The notes beneath the pieces are model-generated. The model saw only the letters and a list, made by a program, of their open reading frames with translations, was not told the DNA's origin and did no database searches. From an uncultured Nitrososphaerales archaeon (GTDB lineage: Archaea; Thermoproteota; Nitrososphaeria; Nitrososphaerales; Nitrososphaeraceae), in the NCBI GenBank assembly GCA_963709405.1, contig CAVPXM010000073.1:1-64000 (forward strand): a stretch of DNA of 64,000 nucleotides, in the 5' to 3' direction. Below, piece after piece: positions 24,934-41,622 of this stretch. Position numbers and translations under genes: made by a program. Every line of letters begins with the position of its first letter. Positions within the stretch are counted from its first letter, which is position 1.

Positions 24934-25078
24934 TTTTTAACTCATCCGGATTAATCATCCCGGACATAACGTTATAATACGATATGGGGAGTGGCGTGTT
25001 ATAAATATTATCTGCATCCTAATGTAAACTGATGTCACAGGATGGTGATAAAATTTATGTATGCTGTTTATCATGAGG
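24934..25078 (+). repeat. Dispersed direct repeat, copy 1 (TATA box + 14-codon ORF 25032..25076)
   Basis: Aligns with 26063-26216. Confidence 0.75.
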
Positions 25079-25181
25079 CGGATCAAATATCGTATTCTAT
25101 GAATAAAACATTACCCTTAGTCGTATATATCCAATCGTGCTTAACCATGACTGAGAGACGAGCAGATGAGAGATCAAATGT

Positions 25182-26062: not shown

Positions 26063-26216
26063 TTTTAACACATACTTCACAATCATCCAAGAAATAGCGT
26101 TATAATATGATATGTGGGATGCCAGGTTATAAATATTATCTAAAATACTGCATCATAGGTGTTGACTGATGTCCAAGGATGATGATAAAATCTATGTATG
26201 CTGTATATCATGATGC
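26063..26216 (+). repeat. Dispersed direct repeat, copy 2 (TATA box + 14-codon ORF 26169..26213)
   Basis: Aligns with 24934-25078. Confidence 0.75.
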
Positions 26217-28552: not shown

Positions 28553-28921
28553 TTGTTTGTGGTGATAAGTATGGACTTGCTAGTAGAAATCGCCAATACT
28601 CGTAACCTGATGAACAAAATATTAATTGTTGGCAGATTGCTATCCGAAAACAAGGGAATAGATACGATGATAAAGTTCAGTATTAAAAATCCAAGCTTAC
28701 ATCATATAATAGTATGTGGTGCTGATGTAAAGGGTCATAGATCTGGCCAAGCGTTATTATCCTTGCACAAAAATGGGGTAAATAAGCAAGGTAGAATTTT
28801 GGGCGTAACTGCCCCTTATCCTCTCTTGTCCTGTTCTCGCATGGAGATTCAATTATTTAGAAGACAAACACTCGTTCATGTAATCCAAATATTCTACTCA
28901 TCTTCATGTAATATATTGTAG
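28553..28921 (+). pseudogene. MtrA/MtxA-like corrinoid-protein fragment
   Basis: GRLLSENKGID...NPSLHHIIVCGADVKGHRSGQALLSLHKNG. Confidence 0.8.
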
Positions 28922-29307
28922 ATTCGTTTCATCATTTCTTCATTTTTCATAGGTTTTAATATGAAGTATTTCTCGTCTAAATCGCGATTGTCTCTATATT
29001 CCTCGTAGAATAACTCACTTGCAGTAACAAAGCAGACTTTGACTTCATTATCGATTTCTTTCATCTTTTGGTACAATTCAAATCCGCCTATTTTAGGCAT
29101 CTTGATATCCAAGAGTAAAAGGTCAAATTTGCCAGGTTTAAAATTCTGTAATGCTAAAAGCGGATCGGTGTAAGCCTCTGTTTCAAATCCGTTCTCTTCT
29201 AAAAGGGTTCTTAGAGTCATATTGGCATCGGGTTCATCATCGACTACAAGGATCATATTGCTCTTATTTCTTCTCCTCCCCTTGCTATCCTTACTTTTGG
29301 AAGTCAT
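28894..29307 (-). CDS. Single-domain response regulator
   Basis: VVDDEPD, LLDIKMP, FVTA, LKP. Confidence 0.95.
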   Translation of the reverse strand: MTSKSKDSKGRRRNKSNMILVVDDEPDANMTLRTLLEENGFETEAYTDPLLALQNFKPGKFDLLLLDIKMPKIGGFELYQKMKEIDNEVKVCFVTASELFYEEYRDNRDLDEKYFILKPMKNEEMMKRIYNILHEDE

Positions 29308-29326
29308 AATGAATTTTCCTCATTTT

Positions 29327-31232
29327 TTATCGTCGCTCTTGCTGTTGCTCGATTTGGGATTTTTGCACTGGATAGTCCTGACTTGGAGTCTTCGAGTTAT
29401 TAGAAGTGGGGATTGTAAATGAGAAGACTGCCCCTCCTGAACCAGTAATATTATTCCTAGCCCATATCTTGCCACCATGTGCCTCGACAATATTCTTCGA
29501 AATGAACAAACCTAATCCTGTTCCATGATATGATTTTGAAACAAATTTTATAAATAGTTTGGAAAATACCTCGGGATCTATGCCTGGCCCGTTATCCTCA
29601 ACGGTTACGACAAGAATTCTGTCACTATCTCCTTCAATACCTTTACCTATTTTTTCTGTAGTTCCCTTAGCGCATATCGTGTGATGATTTAAAACGCCCA
29701 ATTTGATAATAATTCTACCTCCTTCTTCTGTGAATTTGATTGCATTGCTTATTAGGTTCCACAGCACTTGAGATATTCTGGTTTTGTCAGCATCAATAAA
29801 GACGGATCTATCCTTGTTATCACTTCCAAGTGATTCGTATATTATTTCTCTTGTTCTGTTGCCTGAATTCATATCCCTTGTTTGCGCTTCAAATTCCTGA
29901 ACAGTATTTACTATAATATCATCTAAATCAAATCTTTCTTTTTTTAGTCTCAGGGCTTGGCTCTCTATCTTTGTTACATCTAGTATATCTTCTGTAAGTC
30001 TACTTAACCGAATGGCGTTCCTGATAACAGTATCTAACATTTCTAGATAACGCTTTACATTGAATTTCATATCATCTTTATCTATAGAGTGAGTACAATC
30101 CTTTGATATTCTGGAGTATAGGATCTCAGACAGACCAAGGATTGGCACGATTGGAGTTCTTAGCTCATGAGCTGCTACATTAATGAAATCCTTTCGCATT
30201 TTATCATTAATCTTTAATTGTTCATAGACTTTTACTTGATTCCACAAGCTCTCAAATATTGTAACGTAGGACGCGACCGTTGGTTTGCTAGTGGAAAGAG
30301 TGGCCAATCCGATCGCTTCAACAAAACTTTCTTTAGAATCATCTAGCTTTTCAATTACCAGGCTTGATTTTCTGTCGACTACCAGAATCGTTACGGTGGT
30401 AACTGCAGTTCCAGCAAATTCACTATAATCGATACGCTGGATATTAAAATTGTAGCATTTCATATTTTTTATTTGCTCTATGATTGAATCAAGAACATTA
30501 CTGGTAGGAGCTATGATCCTCACATTAACCCCTTTCTCCCCTGCTGTAGCTAGCTTGGATCAATTGGTCGATTATCCCCACGTGTTGCTCACGTAGAAAT
30601 GCATTGGCAGTAGGACATAACAATAAAACTTCCTCTTTGGCGGACTTTACCATATCGACGAATGCTTCTTTTGTAATTTGTGCATCCTGAAGCACTTCTG
30701 TAGTACCCAGAACAATACCTTCTTCAATTTCTGTAATCTTTTGTTCAGCTGGAATGGACCGATTCCAGAAACTTTCAAATATATATTGCTGTTGCTCTAT
30801 TACTTCCTTAACGTTGCAATATATGAGTTGTGGAACAGCTTGTTTCTCTATTATATTGGCAACAGCCAGATATGCATTTCCATCGCAAATTCCGAAGTTG
30901 CCCTTAATTCCATCTATATGTCGCAGCTCGGTTACGATATCCAATAGCTCCTTACAGTAGTGCAAATTGAATGAGTTAATTTCAGTGATGAAGCGTATCT
31001 TTATTCCTCTTCTCTTAAAATCATGATATGCTCTCCTTAAAGGCTCAAAGCCCATACAAACTGATGGTGAGATAGAGTCTCCGCATGCATCAAATTTGTT
31101 CTTAATATTATAAAAAACATCCAAGGACTTGTTAGTGGCCTCTTCTCCATACAAAACTCGTGTAATACCTGTATCCAATTTTTTGTCGTCACCATCGTCT
31201 TCTCCCGAAGCCGTAGTGACCTGTGGAGACAT
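29327..31232 (-). CDS. Cytoplasmic sensor histidine kinase (one frameshift near 30525)
   Basis: FINVAAHELRTP, NLISNAIKF, DNGPGI, GTGLGL; N-terminal domains parallel those of 11399..13079. Confidence 0.92.
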
Positions 31233-31344
31233 TAGTTGTATAGTGATTTATATTCAAATCATTATATAAAAATATTTGAATAGTCTTTATAAAGACGAAC
31301 GGACAAAACTCACGCGACGACACTGGTAACATTCGCTTCGTTCC

Positions 31345-31836
31345 TCAGTCTAATTCTGCTTCTACGATCTTTATCAGATTATTTACCTTGATTGGCTTTT
31401 TAACGAAGCAACCCATGCTTATTTTCGGATATAGGTCTCTAAGGGCATATAGATTTACCTCACCAGTAGACATGAAACAAATCCTGATATTGAGGTCTAG
31501 TTCCAAAATCTTTTTACACAATTCGAAGCCATTCATAAATGGCATGTTAATATCAACAAGAAGCAAATCATAATAATTTGACTTGAACTCAGCTAGTAAT
31601 GTGATAGGATTATTATATGTATGAACCTTATATCTCTTATTATTATTTTCCAAGGCCAATTTCAAAGTATAAGTAATATCAGGTTCATCATCGACAATCA
31701 GAATAGTTTTGTAATGTTGTTTCTCTAAACCTGTACGATGTACTTCATCTTGTTTTTGCTTCTCTAAAATAGAGTCAATGTTTTTTGATTTTATTGTAGG
31801 ATTCTTTTGGTGAGTTCCTCGAGTTATATCGCTCAT
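31345..31836 (-). CDS. Response regulator (REC with short N-terminal extension)
   Basis: IVDDEPD, VDINMPFMNG, KKP. Confidence 0.92.
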   Translation of the reverse strand: MSDITRGTHQKNPTIKSKNIDSILEKQKQDEVHRTGLEKQHYKTILIVDDEPDITYTLKLALENNNKRYKVHTYNNPITLLAEFKSNYYDLLLVDINMPFMNGFELCKKILELDLNIRICFMSTGEVNLYALRDLYPKISMGCFVKKPIKVNNLIKIVEAELD

Positions 31837-32738
31837 TATTCGGTTATCCTGCTCGCTTATCCTGGCTTGTCATTTCGAAATGATAAAGTACGTTTGTGCG
31901 CCACAACACTATATTATAAATCTAGTATAATAATGCAATGGCCAGAAGGCTCGTCTAGGCGATATATACCTGAATTAGATAAAAGATTCAGATATGCAGT
32001 AGAAGTTAGAAACAACTCATGGTTTCAGGACCCTATCTTATAGTTTTTTTGCTAATAACAATATGTGTATGGGTCTGGAGTCTACTCGCGGATATAAAAA
32101 TTCCACCAGTAGTTACAACAGACTTTCTCTACATAAGGTTCATTGGAGATAGGACTATACAAGAAAAAGCTTTTGGCAAAATACATAAAGATAGAATTTC
32201 AGAGTATCAGCAAATAATCATTATGCTGGTTTTGGTCCTGGAACTGCTAGCACATTCAGGAAAATGTTGGACATGTCAGAAGTAACATGGAAGCATGTTA
32301 AGGTGCCTCATACAGTAGAAGAATTACATAATAACCCAAAACAAACTACTCTATCAGATTTTTTGAAATGAGATATTATTCATGATAATGATGGACAATT
32401 CATATATATTGATCTCAAAAGTAGAACTCATGTTAAAACGTTACCATGAGAGTTAGGTAAAATAAGAGATTACAGACATATGCCTAGAAAAGTAGTGTTT
32501 ATAATTAATATCCAATATCGTCGTTGTAACGCCAAAAGGTTCGTTCATACCCATTATATTCACATAAACTTTTCCAATCAAAGCAAATACTCCAAGCCCA
32601 ATAACTGCTCGCATTAATAACAAATGGCCCTCTCTATCAATTGAGCAGTTATTTATAACTTACCTACTTAGGTGCTAAATACCAACCAAGTTCTATCATA
32701 CTACTGAACTTAAATAATATATTATTTCTATATTACAC

Positions 32739-33415
32739 TTGAGAACAGGAAAAGAAACTAATCATCTGACTAACAAACAGGAACAAGATACTATTCACGT
32801 CTAGTTTCTCGTATTATAGATAGTATTGAGACAATAGAAGGTGGAGGCTTTATTGTACATGGGCCATTTCCAACTGATACTCTTTCCGATTTCGACCCAT
32901 TTCTTTTATTAGACGAAATGGGTCCTAAAAATTGGAAGCAAGGGGAAGCAAAAGGAGCACCCGACCATCCTCATCGTGGATTTGAAACAATAACATATAT
33001 GATTGAAGGTAAATTTGCTCATAAGGATTCTAGAGGAAATTCAGGCAAACTTGGACCAGGTGATATACAATGGATGACTGCGGGAGCAGGCGTTATTCAT
33101 TCTGAAATGCCAGACGAAGAATTTACTCGAGTAGGCGGAATATTACATGCATTTCAACTATGGGTTAACTTGCCACGACGTGATAAAATGATAAAACCTC
33201 GTTACCAAGATATTTCATCTTCGAAAATTCCTGTAGCACAAACTGAAGATGGTGCTGTGAAAGTTAAAGTTATTGCAGGTGAAGCATTAGGCGCACGTGC
33301 TATGATAGACACACGTACCCCAATCTTTTATCTTCATTTCACTCTACAACCAGGTGCCAAAGTGGTACAAGCAATTCCAAGAGAGTATAACGCTTTTGCA
33401 TACTCTTCAGCATAA
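32739..33415 (+). pseudogene. Pirin-family protein, C-terminally truncated
   Basis: DPFLLLDEMGP, HPHRGFETITY, QWMTAGAGVIHSE, QLWVNLP. Confidence 0.9.
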
Positions 33416-33788
33416 GTGATGAAGAATCAATTAATGGCTGTCTTTCTGCTAGTGTTCCTCGATCTGAGAACTTTGCTCGGTAAAGGAAACGGTACCTAAC
33501 TACGTGTTGGGACTCTATCGATATCCTCACTTACAGACATGCCTTCGTGTTCAGTCACCGGTTTTTAGTGATGCGGTGTCCTTGAAAATTTTAGCATCCA
33601 ATTAGAATCAATGTACTATGAGACCCTGTGGTTATAATTGTTACGGTACAAAGGCAAACAAAGTAACGTTATCCTCACCACTCAATGAGAAAATACATTG
33701 AAAAATATTTGAGGATAAATACTCCTCCTAAACAAATCAGCGTGTAAAGTTATTCCTGATTCAAAAACAAAAATTAGGATAAAGTAAC

Positions 33789-34076
33789 CTAATGCATTGT
33801 CATTACTAGCATAGATGAATACCAATCGGCTGTTAATTTATGGGCCATCGCACTCATTAAATCACCTGATTTTATATTCGAGTGTGCCTGTTCCTGTTCT
33901 TCTTTGATTTTCTGAATGAAATATTCACGTTGACGTATTTGTTTTTGCTTAAATATATCGGCGATTGTTTTTTGAAATTTGCTCAAGTCAGCCGAAATTT
34001 TTTCATTAAGTTTACGGGTTAATTCATCTTGCTGTGCCTGTATTTCACGCATCTCATCATTAGCGATGGAATGCAT
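33789..34076 (-). CDS. Hypothetical coiled-coil ORF
   Basis: 95-aa helical ORF abutting the truncated kinase. Confidence 0.35.
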   Translation of the reverse strand: MHSIANDEMREIQAQQDELTRKLNEKISADLSKFQKTIADIFKQKQIRQREYFIQKIKEEQEQAHSNIKSGDLMSAMAHKLTADWYSSMLVMTMH

Positions 34077-35128
34077 TGATCGAGGAAAAGATTCTTAACA
34101 CCTCCTCCTGCGCTGAATTTATTAAATCAAATGCTCGTTTTATAGAATACGAGGGATTTGGAATAATTTCTATAGTAGCTGGTTCAACACCTTCTTCAAT
34201 ATCTCTTATCCTATCTTTAGCCTCAATTCCATTTTTCCATAGTTCTTCAAATATTGTTTTAAAATGACTGACATATGCTGGTTCGCTACTAAGCAATAGA
34301 CTTTGAACATTTTCGCCGCCATCCATCTTTTCTATGGTAGCTGCTTATTTCCTTATCTGAAACTTCAAAGCTCATCGGTGGCAGATTTTTAAGGTATCTT
34401 ATTTCTATGCCTGCATTAAGAAGCGTTTTTACTAAATTCATGTTGTCTTTATTTATGTCACTTAGGTATCTAATGCCTCTGTGCTCGCCTTTCTTTTGTT
34501 TGTCGAATAGCTGTTTCTTTATATCAAAAAAATGATTGTAGCTATATTGCATTCCACCGCCTGTCAAACAAGTACATACTTCAGTCGAGCTGGCAGTTAA
34601 TCGACTGATTTCTTTGATAATCTCTTGAGCATCCTCAATTACCCTAGTTTCATAATGTACTGTTCCCTCTTCTATTTCCTTAATTTTCTTTTCTGCATGT
34701 ATTGATTTGTTCCACAAAGTCTCGAAAATGTTCTGTTGCTGTTCTACAATTTCTCTAATATTTGTATGGATAGCTTGTTGATGCGGCTCACTCATGGTTA
34801 TAAAGCCTAAATACTCCCTTTCGTTGAGTAAGAGGTTAGCTTCAATTTCATTCATATGCCGTACCTCCGCGATTTTCATTAAATCCTTGCAGTATTGGAG
34901 GTTTTGCTGTGTAATTTCAAAGATATATCTTTGAACAGTGTATTTTCTATTATTGATATCCATCATTGCTGTCCTAATCGATTCAAAAGAAAAGATGAAA
35001 GAAGGAAATCTAGAATTACCATAGACATCCATTCTGTGCTCTGCGTTATAGAACATGTCTGATAGCGCATTTATGACTTCAGCACGATGTAATACCTTAA
35101 TCTTCGCGTTCATGATAACGCATCTCAA
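34060..35128 (-). pseudogene. N-terminal sensory domains of a histidine kinase, no kinase core
   Basis: IVEQQQNIFETLWNKSIHAEKKIKEIEEG and FEELWKNGIEAKDRIRDIEEG resemble the other HK N-termini. Confidence 0.8.
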
Positions 35129-35362
35129 CTGATTGGTAAGCTGAATGCAAATGTTGCACCTCCTTTTCCATCTACATTATTCTCATGCTATATTCTACCT
35201 TCCCTAGTGTCTCAATTTTGACAACTAACGACGACGGCATAGTGTAATCTACACATGCATCAATTATATTATTTGCTTTAGAAGTTTATGCGGGCATCCC
35301 TTGTGCCACGTTCCCATATTGAGACGATTCCATTATTATCTCGTGGATTCGGTCCAGTCATA

Positions 35363-35779
35363 TCATAACACTATATATCGTAATAATCGCTCCTCTACAC
35401 GAGTCAATGCATTAGAAAGTCGTAATAGACCTTTTAGATCCACTGCAATAGGATTTAGAGAACAGGCAACGATGACACTAACAGTATCTGTATGATGTAT
35501 AGTAGTCTTAATGGTAAGGTCGTGAGTTTCTAGCGGTTCAAGAGATATATCTTTACTAACATCATTCGGTTTGAATTCTGGATGATTAGTGGTTATGATA
35601 GTCCAGATATTATCAACCTTGAATCTAAATCGTATATCATGTAAGGCATGTTTGTCTGCTGGTAGGCTATCGATAAATGACAGTGATGACAACGATGACA
35701 CTGAAGAGACCACTGCAAACTCTTGCCTACACACTTTATACCAGAAAGTCAGATACAAGGCGCGCAAAAACCTGATCAC
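35363..35779 (-). pseudogene. Second, partial copy of the candidate replication protein
   Basis: FIDSLPADKHALHDIRFRF...VSKDISL...HHTDTVSVIVACS...RLSNALTRVEERL parallels the 37696-35776 gene. Confidence 0.8.
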
Positions 35780-37696
35780 GTGCGTAACTTTTCATGTATA
35801 GCTCCATCTAACCTCACCCCTGGATACTCTTGACGCTCTTTTCTAATTCTAATTCCATTACCTTCCTTCAGATCCTTCGAGTAAATGCGAAGTAATGCAT
35901 GTTCTCCATCCTCCCATGTCATTTCGAATTTCTCGCCAGCATACTCACTTAAAGAATCTGTACCAAAGTGCCACATCGTTACAATCCAAGAGTTGTGGTT
36001 TGGGATATGAATTTGTGGCAATTGCGGTTGGGGTATTGTGTGTGGGCAGCCTGTTACTAATGCTAATAGCCTTTCCTCTACAGATGTCAGCAGATTTGAC
36101 AAGCGGATAAGACCTTCATGATCTACAACTACTGGTTTCATTGAACAGGCTACGATGACACTGACTGTGTCAGAATGGTGTACAACTGTCTTTGCCTCCA
36201 TATTATACATTTGAATAGGCAATAGAGAAACGTCTTTACTTACTTCATTAGGTGTTGTACTTACTGACATAGGTGACATTATAGCTTACAGACATGGGTT
36301 ACACTTCTGTCGGGAAGTGAATCCATATAGAAATCAGAATAAGGTTTAATCTAATACACGAAAAAGAATGGACTGGTGATACCATATGTAATATTTGTAA
36401 GAGATATGGTGTATCCAGAAAGACTTACTACAAGTGGAATAATAGATACAAGCAGAAAGGGATAGAAGGCCTATCAGATAACTCCAGAAGGCCTCATAAA
36501 ATCAACTACAGGAAGGTAACACCAGAAGTAGAAGAGACTATACTTGATCTACGATTAACTAAGAGATTTGGATGTAATAGGATCAAGTTTCGACTAAAAA
36601 GAATCATTGGAATCTCATTAAGCACCCGAACTATATACAAGATACTAAAGAGACATTGTCTTAATATCCTCATGTGTAAGGCCAAAGCAAGAACTTACAA
36701 ACGGTTTGTCATGAAGCATCCAAATGATATGGTGCAAGTGGATATCCTTGGCCCTTTCTATCTGAGTAATTCCAGTCAAAGGAATTACATCATTAGTTGC
36801 TTAGATGATTGTTCTAGGAAGGTAGCTAGCAAGTGGTCCGAAAGAAAGAGGTCAGTGGATGTTCTTAATGTATTAGAGGACTGGATAATGATTAATGGTA
36901 AGCCTAAGATGATGATGCATGATAACGGTAAACAGTTTACATCCAGAATATTCAGACATTTCCTTATACATAATCAGATAAAAGATAAGCAAATACCAAA
37001 ATCATATCCGCAGTTACAGGGCAAAGTAGAAGCATATAACAAGATTGTAAAGAATGAATTCATAGCATTAGAAGATATACCAAACATAGATGATGGTAAA
37101 CAAAGATACGACATGTTTGTTAAAGCATATAACGAAACCAGAGAACATGGAGGCATAAATGGTCTTACTCCATCGGAGATGTTCCTACAAAGGTTAATTA
37201 CATCCAGTACACATACGAGAACTAAACAGAAAAGGGTAACCCATGTAGGTAATTAAAAATGTAACCTATCCGTGCAAGTACAACAATTAGGTATCAGCTC
37301 TGGATGGGTATGACGTATTGTTGACCAAATTCCTACTGTGTTAAATCTAAGGCGTATGTCGTGTACCGAGTGTCTTTCAGATGGCAAGGTATCGATAAAT
37401 GACACAGATGACAGTTGGGGGACCACCGTACGGTTATCTGTCATTCCAAGCCTAGGTTTAGCAAAGTTAAATCCATTAAGACTGTAAAATGCAGGACCAG
37501 AATAGTATTCTAGTTGCGCGTAACCGTTTCTTACATATTGCGAAATCTTGTTCCTAAACGTTCCGTGTGTCATACTATATTTCTTGCCATCTACTTCAAA
37601 GTCTAAAAAATCGTGATAGCAAAACGGTTTTTTCTCGACTCGTACTATCCTTTGCATATGTACCTTCATTGCATAATCTAACTTTGCCTTAGGCAT
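35776..37696 (-). pseudogene. About 293-aa hypothetical protein, candidate replication initiator, interrupted by IS481
   Basis: Removing the IS and one TSD copy joins HPELIPN to EVSKDVSLL in frame. Confidence 0.8.
36253..37285 (+). mobile_element. IS481-family element, 1033 bp, 6-bp TSD ATTAGG
   Basis: TGTTGTACTT...AAGTACAACA ends; ATTAGG at 36247-36252 and 37286-37291; HTH YGVSRKTYYKW and DDE QVD/HDNGKQF/KVE. Confidence 0.95.
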
Positions 37697-37788
37697 CCCT
37701 TCATCAACCCAGATTGCTGAATACCAGTACGTGTCATTGTCATTGTTAATTTGTAGATTCTAGTCCGACAGCACCTACTATTTGAATT

Positions 37789-38583
37789 TCAGCTAGCTCT
37801 CTTTTTAGCAAGATCAACCTTTGCAGTGAATATGACTTCAGCGACCATCTTATTCTTACTATAGGACAAACTCATATGCCGACGTAGATATTCGAATGAA
37901 ACTTGAAACTCGACATCAAAGGATTTCTCCTCTTGATTATGAGGTAGGCGCGCTTCTTGCTCAGATTCCAGCTCTTTGATCCGTATGTATAACACCGAAT
38001 TATCGAGCTCAAGTTTTTCAATTTTGGTTTCGAGTTCGACTACTTTGGCTTGACTTGAAAATTGCTGGTCTGCACTGGTAAATGAAGTAGATTTTTTTAT
38101 TACATCTTCTAGTTCCTTGCGTACAGGACATGCATCTATGCACAGATTTTCTAGATTTGGAGACCCTTCACAATTTACAACATTATTTGGATTGGCATCT
38201 GAAGTTCCAGCTGGTTCAATTTCCGAATTTCCGTATGTGTCAACTAGCACTCGTGGGGTAGCCTTCTGATCTTCTCGAGAGATCGACAAATTTTCGTTCT
38301 TTTCCTTTTTAGGCCTGGTCTTTTTCTTCCATTCATCTCGACAATATAGTTCTATAACTCGAGTCGTAATGAGTCCTTGCGCTATTTCCTCTCGTAATGT
38401 CCCTTTAATTTCTCTACAGATACTATCGGGCTTTGAAACTATACGCTCGAATGCTTCACCTAATGTTATGATCAGTTGCTCATACTTAATCAGGAAATTT
38501 TTGAATTCTTGTTTGACATTTGCGATTATAGAATCTATATCTGAATTGTTGTGGTCAATGCTGCTTTGTTCATTGGAACTCAA
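37789..38583 (-). CDS. Hypothetical coiled-coil protein of the integrated element
   Basis: 264-aa ORF in an overlapping same-strand gene run. Confidence 0.7.
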   Translation of the reverse strand: MSSNEQSSIDHNNSDIDSIIANVKQEFKNFLIKYEQLIITLGEAFERIVSKPDSICREIKGTLREEIAQGLITTRVIELYCRDEWKKKTRPKKEKNENLSISREDQKATPRVLVDTYGNSEIEPAGTSDANPNNVVNCEGSPNLENLCIDACPVRKELEDVIKKSTSFTSADQQFSSQAKVVELETKIEKLELDNSVLYIRIKELESEQEARLPHNQEEKSFDVEFQVSFEYLRRHMSLSYSKNKMVAEVIFTAKVDLAKKRAS

Positions 38584-38815
38584 TCTTCATACCTCTTGTC
38601 AATTTTGATTTGGCAGCTGCCTTCATCGATGGATTAAATTGCGCCGTTTCGAATTCTAAAGTATCATCTTCATGTGACCTGTCCCAGTACGAATATTGAT
38701 CGTTGAACTCTGCTAAGGCTAGTTTTAGTTCTGCAGTCCCTTTCTGGCTTCGACTGCAATTGATGCAGTTTGATCCCGCGGTTTCAAGTGACTTGTTATT
38801 ACCTACGACTATCAC
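38570..38815 (-). CDS. Small hypothetical protein (CxxC)
   Basis: Overlaps both neighbours. Confidence 0.5.
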   Translation of the reverse strand: MIVVGNNKSLETAGSNCINCSRSQKGTAELKLALAEFNDQYSYWDRSHEDDTLEFETAQFNPSMKAAAKSKLTRGMKIEFQ

Positions 38816-38982
38816 GTTTGCTCGACCTCATGAAACTTAGGTACACAATTACTACAAAGCAATAGAGTAATAATTCCCAGGCTGCCAACTTTTATCGGAA
38901 TGTTATTAGTAGCTTTTTCAAAGCGACCAGTTGCTTCACATATAAGGTTATTAGCATCCGCGTCGGTGTAATTATCGTCCAT
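38812..38982 (-). CDS. 56-aa Zn-ribbon-like protein (not in the ORF track)
   Basis: MDDNYTDADANNLICEATGRFEKATNNIPIKVGSLGIITLLLCSNCVPKFHEVEQT; fills the gap between overlapping genes. Confidence 0.65.
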   Translation of the reverse strand: MDDNYTDADANNLICEATGRFEKATNNIPIKVGSLGIITLLLCSNCVPKFHEVEQT

Positions 38983-39193
38983 GGTTTAATCCACCTATGG
39001 TCGTGGGTTTGCTTGATTGGAGGGTCTCAATTCTACGATCAAGCGAACCAGTATCCTTTTTTGCTTCAAACGTGTACTGCTTTTCAAGTATTCTTAACAA
39101 ATACCTGCTGCGTGATATATCTCCGCGTTCTGAATCAATTTGCCGCATCAGTTCAATAGGTAGTGATAGACCGGTTGGAATTACCTTTTTCAA
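38972..39193 (-). CDS. Ribbon-helix-helix (CopG-like) DNA-binding protein
   Basis: TGLSLPIELMRQIDSERGDISRSRYLLRILE. Confidence 0.8.
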   Translation of the reverse strand: MKKVIPTGLSLPIELMRQIDSERGDISRSRYLLRILEKQYTFEAKKDTGSLDRRIETLQSSKPTTIGGLNHGR

Positions 39194-39243
39194 TACTGTA
39201 ATCTTGTAATACCAATAAATATCGTTTCACGGTAGTACTACCA

Positions 39244-40393
39244 TTGCAATCTAAATATAGAATAGACATCTTCAATACAATAGCAGAGAGTTTACTACAA
39301 TCAGAAACTGATCTTACTTACTCTGCATTATACCAGAGGGTTTTAGCCAACATAGATTGCACCTTGTCCCACAGAGATTTTGTGAGCTGTTTACAAGCTA
39401 TGGTGAATGAACATATAGTAAACAAGGTCGATAAGACTGGCAAGAGAGGTTCAAAAATATATTACTTCCTAAGCGAGAATGCAAGAAGCCAGCACCAATT
39501 ACGAATACTCAAAGTCGATAAGGATTATGAGACTAAGAGAAGTATATATCAAATATTACTTTATTTTCACAGCTTTAAGAGAGGTGAATTACTTACGCAA
39601 AGACAATTGAATAAAAAACTATTTGAATTTGGACTGAGATTTGAAGATTTGCAACAAGTAAACTATGAGCAAGACAAGGTAACCGCTCTAACTGGCAACA
39701 CAAAGTATACAGAAGTTAATGCTTTTACAGAATCCTATTGGGAATATTGCCGTCGTAGAGTATAAGGATAATGAAAATAGTCGCTTTGCAGAGAACAATA
39801 TTGTATATTATCTCTATATACCTGGATTTACTCTAATGGAATTTATAATATATATAAAAAAACTAAGAAGGTTGAGAGAACCACGTCCATTTTCACATTA
39901 TCCACCCCTTGTTCCATATGTCTTTTACAGGAATTTTACTGACACAGAAATAAAAGAAGCCATTGAATTATTTCATAAGGCAAGTTTGATTAAGATTATC
40001 CCTCCAGTCATTGCAGGAGAAACACGGTACTACCTTTCCGATGATTCGTTGATAGGTCTTATAACAATCATAAGACAAATTCAAGAAATAATGGTTTACA
40101 AGGTCATTACCAAACTTACATACATTGAAAAGCCTGATGATAACGACAGACAAATTCTCGGATACTACTTTGGGAAGAAAGCCGCTGATTTTACTATTGC
40201 CAAAGCACATGAAGTTAGAAAAGACTTAAAGAAACCCGATGCGAAGATCGAAAGTAAAAAAATAATGCAGGAATATGATAACAACATAGATAGTCTAATA
40301 AGTAGCCTAGATGAGATTTATGGAAGCAAATTCAAGTCAAGTGAGCTATTGATCGATCTAATTGTTGGTTTTCCAAAGATTGATCGGAATTAG
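39244..40393 (+). CDS. Winged-helix-containing protein, frameshifted near 39720
   Basis: LTYSALYQRV...RDFVSCLQAMVNEHIVNK...KIYYFLS; continues in ORF 39719. Confidence 0.6.
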
Positions 40394-40484
40394 AATAACT
40401 TATGGAATATAGCACGTCATTTATTGTTTTTAAGTAGATCTTCTTATTTATCATTTCATTTCACATTACTCTTAGATGAGATCA

Positions 40485-41261
40485 CTAATTGACATTTTTC
40501 TTTGCTAATGCCTCTGGTTTAACGTGTGCCAGCTTAGGATTATGTTGTATCATTGACATAATCTGATTAAATCGCTGATTAGTCTCATCGCGGATAGTCT
40601 GTATATCATGTTCATATTTTTGCTTCATGGCTTGCATTTCTAGATCCTTTTCAGATAATTTTGCCTCAATGCTCTTACCTCTAGCTTCCAGTGCAGTATA
40701 ATCTAAAAATGTAAGATACTTCATACACTTTGTGAGATATATCTCTCTTCTTTCAGACTCTTTTTTAGTATAATAGACGCTGCCATTATGACCCAAGAAC
40801 CATTCACTATAGTCTCCTCCAACTTCATCAGAAATCACTGTTTTAACAAAGCGTCTTAGCGAATGTAGTGTGATCTTCCTTCGTCTCATTCCTTCTTTCC
40901 TGTCGTCTAAACCAGCAACCTTTAGTACTTTAGTAAATTCTGTTTCTAACTTTATGTACAGAGTCTCGGGCTTTGATTCTACGTTAAATGTATTGAATAT
41001 CAGATCATCGGGATTTAAGCCTCTCTCACGATATTTCCAATCTAGCCATTGCTTAAGATATCGAGTTGTTTCATCTGAAATGTAAATATCTCGTGCAACT
41101 CTTGTTTTAGTATAGTCTGCGCGAATACGTATCATAGTGGGGTTGACCTTAAAATTGATATCCTTTATTCTTATTGCACATCCTTCAACCGCGCGCAGTC
41201 CTCCGGAGGTGAACAAGACCGGTCTGGTAATTCTTTCGAGTCCTTGTGCTATTGTTACCAA
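40485..41261 (-). CDS. Tyrosine recombinase/integrase, N-terminally truncated
   Basis: GLRAVE (R), TKT (K), HSLRR, LGH, VYY catalytic set. Confidence 0.9.
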   Translation of the reverse strand: MVTIAQGLERITRPVLFTSGGLRAVEGCAIRIKDINFKVNPTMIRIRADYTKTRVARDIYISDETTRYLKQWLDWKYRERGLNPDDLIFNTFNVESKPETLYIKLETEFTKVLKVAGLDDRKEGMRRRKITLHSLRRFVKTVISDEVGGDYSEWFLGHNGSVYYTKKESERREIYLTKCMKYLTFLDYTALEARGKSIEAKLSEKDLEMQAMKQKYEHDIQTIRDETNQRFNQIMSMIQHNPKLAHVKPEALAKKNVN

Positions 41262-41347
41262 TACTATCTAAAAACGCTCTTGGTCTTGGATAATCGTCAA
41301 TCTGCATGCGTATCGACTTTAGCAATAAAGCCTTTATGCTTAATTCC

Positions 41348-41374
41348 AAATATAAACTATTTTAGTTTATATTT
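41348..41374. repeat. Perfect 12-bp inverted repeat with 3-nt spacer
   Basis: AAATATAAACTA-TTT-TAGTTTATATTT. Confidence 0.8.
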
Positions 41375-41622
41375 AGTATAAAATATTTCTCAAAGGTTAA
41401 GGGTTGTATTGATTCTCTTAATTGTCTGAATCATAAATCGAATAAGATGAAAGTCTGAATATACAGAAAGATATAAAAATGCATTGAAGTGTACAAAGTC
41501 AAATCATAAACCTTGTATCAGTATCACAGTATCGATATAGGTTATCAATATGTTTCTCTCCTATCTCTAAGTATTTCAAATTCACTTCTACAGCATCTCA
41601 CTCGATCCAAACTTTCTAACGT

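Follow-up and report, generated by a model that had tools for sequence, protein, structure and literature searches.

We analysed 64,000 nucleotides (nt) of contig CAVPXM010000073.1 (assembly GCA_963709405.1, positions 1 to 64,000), hereafter the window, from an uncultured archaeon of the Nitrososphaeraceae, and identified within it an inactivated small integrative element of Nitrososphaeria. The element is laid out as a tyrosine integrase, a divergent regulator, small regulators, a putative replication gene (rep) and cargo, and the same gene module was found again on contigs C7, C12 and C49. We regard the window copy as inactive because its rep gene is interrupted by an IS481-family insertion sequence and its integrase lacks about 355 nt. 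An initial annotation of this DNA had proposed a plasmid-like element with a rolling-circle initiator distantly related to Rep_trans, and all the parts that it named are present in the region.

The IS481-family element was identified by its Pfam rve and LZ_Tnp_IS481 matches and has inverted TGT...ACA ends (54 nt, 76%) with a 6-bp target duplication, ATTAGG. Removing it leaves a rep gene of 882 nt, corresponding to 293 amino acids (aa) and a stop codon, in which the motifs HDIRLRF, WHFGTD, LRIYSK and IRKERQE fall at residues 112, 229, 256 and 271. The restored protein of the initial annotation is thereby recovered, and contig C7 carries an uninterrupted 293-aa paralogue (L003) that is 80% and 87% identical to the two window halves. 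Contigs from three of four soil sequencing runs also join across the IS481 site; these runs were available as contigs only, share at most 26% of words and represent relatives, not the window element.

AlphaFold modelled the full Rep protein as a domain of winged helix-turn-helix type (wHTH) at residues 7-80, in agreement with the wHTH-like part previously suspected at the N-terminus, followed by a disordered linker (85-105) and a sheet domain with the fold of TATA-binding proteins (TBPs; 109-293). When modelled alone, the sheet domain reached a predicted local distance difference test score (pLDDT) of 91 and a predicted template modelling score (pTM) of 0.85. A structure search with this domain returned RepDE (4cwc; Z 6.3, root mean square deviation 4.4, 145 residues, model 5-189 against chain 39-228) and RepSTK1 (4cij; Z 4.2), so that a fold unrelated to Rep_trans, which the initial annotation had allowed for, is not what was found. 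A VIA search with the whole of Rep was filled by wHTH matches, and RepDE was not among the matches listed.

Tyr261, the tyrosine of LRIYSK, is invariant (131/131 sequences). Lys263 (128/131), Arg259 (99/131), Arg272 (122/124), Glu274 (119/124), His232 (128/131), Asp236 (130/131) and His116 (127/128) are also conserved, and all of these residues lie on strands of the model, with strands 152-161 and 164-173 holding R-x-Y-x-K and R-x-E. The key residues described for RepD are D46, R140, D142, A144, D146, R189, Y191, K193, R212 and E214 (PMC4797284). The spacings of R259-x-Y261-x-K263 and R272-x-E274 match RepD directly, H232-x-G234-x-D236 corresponds in spacing to D142-x-A144-x-D146, and His116 falls at RepD position 46 if the aligned range (model 5 = chain 39) is ungapped. 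With the register taken from motif spacing and aligned ranges, the metal ligands are probably His116, His232 and Glu274 instead of Asp, Asp and Glu. The expected conservation of acidic residues thus holds for Glu274, and the other two putative ligands are histidines.

We also found a sister family, represented by a 361-aa protein on the same contig (L278:5860-6945; G000:C73, about 104.9-105.9 kb), which aligns with Rep in HHalign (98%, E 1e-14, 16% identity) and keeps the same key positions. This family bridges Rep to the Rep_trans motif because it has Asp at position 232 (110/110 members), which gives His/Asp/Glu ligands and a D-x3-D pattern like D142/D146 of RepD. It has 215 homologues, and upstream of its gene lie an integrase and, between the two, a transposase-like gene. 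Within the Rep family itself, P0258 departs from the other members in extending about 150 aa further at the C-terminus. Rep had no match in Pfam (0/47 members, and neither window half) or PHROGs, and no relevant match among PDB sequences (best E 0.09, unrelated). The highly divergent Rep_trans-like initiator of the initial annotation is upheld by the fold, the tyrosine, R-x-Y-x-K and R-x-E, and not by a PF02486 match or by the ranking of structural matches, in which TBPs score higher. Atlas features of a distant member gave DUF7845, Phage_CRI and Rep_trans clusters at 0.79-0.82, which are leads only.

Of 82 distinct full-length linkers, 81 carry the motif TGACA-N4-ACCATACGG(T/G)GGT in their DNA, without exception in a single codon phase; the anchor was our own consensus, of which TGACA is not a part. 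A synonymous-site test covered 58 intact genes with a median identity of 45% (all below 90%). Of 62 four-fold columns, the three that vary least are codons of the motif (0.37, 0.50 and 0.85 bits; most others 1.4-1.95), and its AAC codon ends in C in 52/54 genes, compared with 62% or less in the other 38 two-fold columns. Where the bases stay fixed, the amino acids differ (Gly/Val; Thr/Met/Ala). At the DNA level the motif is constrained far more than other parts of rep. Its core, A(C/T)GG-KGGT, recurs with the same spacing in six of seven proteins of another family, 17-26% identical (L058-L064; L059 and L060 match L058, and these three are mutually close), and the sister gene carries it as ACGG-AGGT. 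In the window the motif occurs once (37423-37443), compared with 0 occurrences in 100 shuffles. The motif is probably a nick site, and a candidate double-strand origin, located within rep.

Truncated rep copies point to the same place. We collected 204 rep copies in 170 loci, 177 of which have room upstream; 101 of these start in the first 10 profile positions and 76 do not, and 25 of the 76 start at positions 80-99. The 5'-truncated copies start within 8 nt of the T of TGGT in ACGG/TGGT in nine of 35 context clusters, two of which probably represent one kind of context, and in about six further clusters the right half-motif was seen by eye just upstream. The base before TGGT is G in 78/81 full copies and G, A or C in truncated ones, a variation that places the break between ACCATACGG and TGGT, give or take a base or two. 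The second copy in the window starts at this breakpoint (35713/35712). Copies of the wHTH half alone that end at the motif were not found in 10 genomes searched with that half. A 5' end linked to tyrosine would be expected to leave a junction of this kind, one-sided and strand-specific, if the mechanism of pT181 (PMC5703833) applies. In several junction partners, TCATGA..GCGCGC lies 11-25 nt before the junction; the sequence joined to truncated rep halves in L130, L202, L078 and L187 resembles the 3' end of a dispersed repeat of about 60 nt with at least six copies in the genome, including window positions 25023-25079 and 26160-26216.

Comparison of close relatives revealed mosaic rep genes. 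Two types, A and B, can be told apart by the catalytic half, which is 51-66% identical from one type to the other. Four proteins of type A, the window's among them, are 87-91% alike in the catalytic half and 67-74% in the wHTH half, and each of the four wHTH halves is nearest to a different type-B protein. The catalytic half served to define the types, which leaves the wHTH result as the informative one: the wHTH tree, which has only one strongly supported branch, shows four label changes across the 5-95% bootstrap range, and type A was grouped in no bootstrap tree. These comparisons indicate that catalytic halves have been swapped between wHTH halves at the motif. We abandoned the explanation of the tandem arrangement as one inherited event; since the wHTH halves differ, several tandem events are indicated. 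The conserved gene downstream of rep (MPRQLVNREE-like start) overlaps type-B rep in L079, L081, L156, L158 and others, and is not found after type-A rep.

The window itself contains both types. The second partial copy reported by the initial annotation is present, and it is not a duplicate but the catalytic half of the other subfamily, 61% identical. The wHTH half of the window gene is nearest to L158 (89%, best among type B), as is the displaced remnant (86%, tied best), and in contigs from two soil runs a wHTH half resembling that of the window is followed directly by a half resembling the remnant. It appears from these sequences that a type-A catalytic half together with 62 nt was inserted at the nick site of a type-B rep and pushed the old half downstream. 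A tentative extension, which we consider possible with the odds against it, is that such half-genes home: a unit bounded by the nick within the gene and a fixed site just past the stop would insert at the nick site of related elements. The resident origin-binding wHTH would then be fused in frame to the invading catalytic domain and the old half displaced downstream. Rolling-circle chemistry would drive the insertion, and the upstream junction would be invisible as it rebuilds the origin.

With the intact paralogue as query we found 517 proteins, and the Rep profile retrieved 1093 representatives (50% clustering) at E <= 0.001. Of 150 other genomes of the family (G035 unpublished), 59 encode Rep; in a phylum-wide sample it was found in 7/43 genomes from a single further family in that order and in 0/257 of the remaining genomes searched. 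All 70 GTDB loci with titles (70/70) belong to Nitrososphaeria or to unclassified Thermoproteota/Thaumarchaeota. The homologue P0287 is labelled Nitrosopumilus maritimus by its source, and a cultured species may therefore carry a Rep homologue.

The homologues occur in mobile contexts, as would be expected of an element-borne initiator. Of 42 loci (distinct full-length rep copies with at least 4 kb upstream), 38 have a tyrosine integrase upstream on the same strand, its end lying 0.4-3.0 kb ahead of rep; in several loci a tRNA gene directly precedes the integrase. Direct repeats of tRNA 3' ends (17 and 19 bp; 12.3 and 10.9 kb apart) enclose rep in L060 and L065. Such attachment (att) repeats were detected in two of 11 tRNA-bearing loci, with none convincing in 13 other loci. 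A Pfam search of 125 proteins from 14 loci identified cargo of the restriction-modification, HEPN, double-GTPase, HNH and metal-related kinds; virion, conjugation and coupling-protein families were not seen, about half of the proteins lacking any family and most element ends being undefined. The cargo suggests that Rep elements carry defence systems. By locus, it includes a GAP1-N2/double-GTPase pair, type I restriction-modification and an ApeA HEPN protein (L060:2298-5206; L062:2903-8798; L066:8031-14663). Of the cryptic integrative plasmid family proposed earlier, the integrative part is sustained by the integrase linkage and the att-bounded relatives, and for the plasmid part no circular form was found among 107 contigs (see below).

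Taking these results together, we propose that rolling-circle replication begins when Rep nicks the motif within its gene on the excised circle, and that the junctions and swaps arise as by-products; we give this reading a probability of roughly 0.74. Rep is probably a minimal Rep_trans-like endonuclease. Once the integrase had excised the element, the wHTH domain would bind close to the linker motif, with the TGACA/TGTCA repeats as possible sites. Holding a metal through His116, His232 and Glu274, the TBP-fold domain would nick the coding strand between ACCATACGG and TGGT via Tyr261, which would remain bound to the 5' end while the free 3'-OH primes rolling-circle synthesis. This would place the origin within rep, like that of pT181. 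If the Tyr-bound 5' end were joined to a wrong partner, both the many copies starting at TGGT and the exchange of catalytic halves could result. Our computational basis is the fold, residue conservation, integrase linkage, att-bounded relatives, DNA constraint and breakpoint clustering, from which we infer nicking, the metal site, wHTH binding, excision and replication.

Several results weigh against this proposal. TBPs outrank RepDE in the structure search (Z 7-8.4 versus 6.3) and every score is middling; a TBP-first ranking is nevertheless expected, because the best structural match of RepDE itself is a TBP (PMC4797284) and RepSNJ2 likewise matched TBPs first (PMC13107129). The residue register to RepD comes from spacing and aligned ranges and not from measured distances, and the equivalents of RepD Arg140 and Glu196 are not conserved, with Met230 at the presumed R140 position. 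HHalign comparisons with pT181 RepC (C-terminal 263 aa only) and with HRPV-3/HGPV-1 Rep were not significant; a profile comparison of Rep-Arvir with RepC was equally blank. A hairpin origin at the motif was considered and is unsupported, as folding there is no better than in shuffles (z 0.02, -0.29), and the hairpin arms are lost in the distant family, which keeps the core. The breakpoint clustering is crude: selection of the loci used a C-terminal motif, related copies do not count as independent, and only close relatives supply the precise cases. When five further tandem loci were tested for insertion into a type-B gene (a shared nearest type-B relative), the results were mixed. Circular contigs numbered 0/107 (54 of at least 5 kb; terminal repeats of at least 20 nt), a weak negative as most contigs are fragments. 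No plasmid or virus relative was found in INPHARED or PLSDB (E 1), and none was confirmed in IMG/VR in two scans. Finally, the window copy has no detected att repeat.

Other roles for Rep and its motif were weighed against these data. If Rep were a MOBT-like relaxase, the motif would be an origin of transfer and the elements would be mobilisable islands that borrow the secretion system of another element, with replication secondary or absent. The order of helix-turn-helix (HTH) then Rep_trans is that of MOBT, which is said to be confined to integrative and conjugative elements (ICEs; PMC6499999), and thaumarchaeal ICEs lack a recognised relaxase according to the accessible text of PMC6563490. 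The failure to find a free circle among the 107 contigs and the defence- and island-like cargo would also suit a relaxase. However, no conjugation or coupling-protein family was seen in the 14 loci, and the same chemistry and nick site would be expected, so that the difference is one of biological role only; we consider this role unlikely. A rolling-circle transposase that copied the stretch between the nick and either a site about 60 nt beyond the stop or a repeat containing GCGCGC into nick-like targets would account for the one-sided junctions, for near-identical type-A halves found repeatedly on different wHTH halves, and for the TCATGA..GCGCGC common to the junction partners. Most copies with upstream room are nevertheless full-length (101/177) and sit in integrase cassettes, and the moved half would lack its DNA-binding domain, which makes transposition as the main activity quite improbable.

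The motif could alternatively be the core site of the tyrosine integrase, with ACC/GGT arms around 7 nt, rather than a nick site for Rep. Short inverted arms and clustered junctions fit a recombination core, and an integrase is always close by. Against this, the att sites detected are tRNA-end repeats distant from rep, and the arms measure only 3-4 bp and are gone in distant members where the core persists. Moreover, the integrases diverge (about 30-91% identity) and the motif does not, and the sister rep family retains the core, so we give this explanation very little credence. Equally slight, in our estimation, is the chance that Rep is a non-catalytic TBP-like factor, in which wHTH and TBP fold bind DNA and regulate the element. 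TBPs are indeed the best structural matches, but the same is true of RepDE (PMC4797284) and, as first matches, of RepSNJ2 (PMC13107129), and the Tyr, Lys, Arg, Glu, His and Asp residues are conserved in Rep_trans spacing in two sister families.

The features of the window copy are listed in the table below. We take the 73-aa and 56-aa open reading frames (ORFs) to be ribbon-helix-helix (RHH) and Zn-ribbon proteins from their sequence patterns. Both ORFs of the initial annotation exist, neither matched Pfam or PHROGs, and the second Cys of the presumed Zn-ribbon is Arg. The coupled minus-strand run described earlier was seen as far as the RHH-like, Zn-ribbon-like, small and coiled-coil ORFs, which mutually overlap; a gap of 92 nt separates them from rep. 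The divergent wHTH gene and the tyrosine integrase are present as annotated, the former frameshifted relative to L148 and the latter internally deleted relative to the intact copy on C49. The extra base of the regulator sits in a GATC word of L148, and the shift may be a (systematic long-read) read error and not decay. The window holds no tRNA, and no convincing att repeat was found for this copy.

Features of the integrative element in the window (positions in the 64,000-nt stretch)
Feature	Position	Strand
rep 5' part, residues 1-135: wHTH domain, disordered linker, TBP-fold strand 1 with His116	37292..37696	-
rep 3' part, residues 136-293: remaining TBP-fold domain (His232, Asp236, Arg259, Tyr261, Lys263, Arg272, Glu274)	35776..36252	-
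Conserved linker DNA motif, candidate double-strand origin; predicted nick 37426/37425 (+/- 1-2 nt)	37421..37443	-
Two TGTCA repeats (reverse complement of motif TGACA); putative wHTH binding sites	37400..37413	-
IS481-family element inside rep; ATTAGG duplication at 36247-36252 and 37286-37291	36253..37285	+
62-nt spacer 3' of the rep stop, with GCGCGC; other tandem loci have homologous spacers ahead of their truncated second copy	35714..35775	-
Type-B (second-subfamily) rep catalytic-half remnant, from the motif right half to near residue 205	35371..35713	-
Coiled-coil protein, 264 aa, no known family; upstream of rep in close relatives too	37789..38583	-
Small ORF, 81 aa; frequently broken in relatives	38570..38815	-
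Cys-motif (presumed Zn-ribbon-like) protein, 56 aa; Arg replaces the second Cys	38812..38982	-
Presumed RHH-like protein, 73 aa; no library match	38972..39193	-
Divergent gene for a wHTH-like regulator; a one-base shift near 39733 splits it; weak MCM4_WHD match, E 0.09	39244..40393	+
Tyrosine integrase (PF00589, E 3e-9), internal deletion of about 355 nt at 41207	40485..41388	-

The genome contains 14 copies of this IS481 at 95% identity or more and at least 1000 nt. An in-frame stop near the 5' end of the copy in rep was first taken as a lesion, a view that was dropped because 13 of the 14 near-identical copies carry the same stop (the fourteenth is offset). In those 13 the stop follows shortly after the first ATG, with a different true start or a recoding event as alternatives. 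At window positions 28894-35128 the element is flanked by a two-component cluster (histidine kinase, receivers) with duplicated, in some cases broken, sensor-like ORFs, and the relatives L069 and L071 are flanked by the same two-component gene types.

Our analyses offer a candidate replication protein, common among ammonia-oxidising archaea, for elements many of which had no identifiable one (PMC6563490). If the proposal is true, Rep-Arvir is joined by a further lineage of TBP-fold initiators in archaea, one that differs in domain order and whose metal ligands appear to include His. Thanks to the predicted nick site, the fold assignment can be tested with a single oligonucleotide. A rep gene of about 0.9 kb that is predicted to contain its own origin is also an obvious starting point for a shuttle vector, none of which is known to us for these archaea.

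Among known systems, Rep_trans (PF02486; RepC, RepD and RepDE of pT181-family plasmids, and RepSTK1; PMC4797284) resembles Rep in the TBP-like sheet, aligned over 145 residues, in R-x-Y-x-K and R-x-E on strands and in the second Asp of D-x3-D, and pT181 has its origin inside the rep gene (PMC5703833), where the candidate origin of the present family also lies. Rep differs in having no PF02486 match, His at the presumed D46/D142 positions and no R140, and in its catalytic domain of about 185 aa on archaeal integrative elements. Initiators of the pT181 type have a C-terminal helical origin-binding domain and nick in a hairpin loop, whereas Rep starts with its wHTH and ends with the TBP-fold domain, and its intragenic motif and breakpoints come without a significant hairpin. 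MOBT relaxases (RelSt3, NicK, Orf20; PMC6499999) share the N-terminal HTH followed by a Rep_trans-type domain, here at the level of fold only, and the location on integrative elements with a tyrosine integrase. They differ from Rep, as far as that source describes them, in three acidic ligands, a PF02486 match and a conjugation module alongside, which was not seen in our 14 loci.

Rep-Arvir (PF25227/DUF7845; RepSNJ2, HRPV-3 ORF9, HGPV-1 ORF14) likewise comprises tyrosine initiators of TBP fold that have a wHTH and occur on integrative elements of archaea (PMC13107129), and it is the nearest named family in the Atlas feature search (0.80-0.82, a lead only). As it was published in 2026, Rep is not the first archaeal TBP-fold initiator; the text and one supplement of that paper do not mention Nitrososphaeria. 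In Rep-Arvir, of about 545 aa, an N-terminal catalytic domain precedes a central wHTH and a further C-terminal domain, the ligands are acidic and the origin lies downstream of the gene (PMC13107129), whereas Rep, of about 295 aa, has its wHTH first and its candidate origin inside the gene, with no PF25227 match or HHalign similarity. The cryptic integrated elements of Thaumarchaeota (PMC6563490) are similarly integrase-bearing, often target tRNA genes, measure about 10-20 kb and carry defence cargo. Many of them lack an identifiable replication protein; one HUH-type rolling-circle protein is named in the accessible part of that source and no Rep_trans-like family ('Rep_trans' had 0 matches in four supplements).

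A description of the Rep family was not found in the open-access literature, a scope that excludes subscription journals and bioRxiv supplements. Overall, Rep resembles Rep_trans in its way of working but fails its Pfam model, acidic ligands and domain order, and it fails the model and the order of Rep-Arvir. It is probably an undescribed TBP-fold initiator, wHTH-first and probably His-liganded, and as such a further lineage of a known kind.

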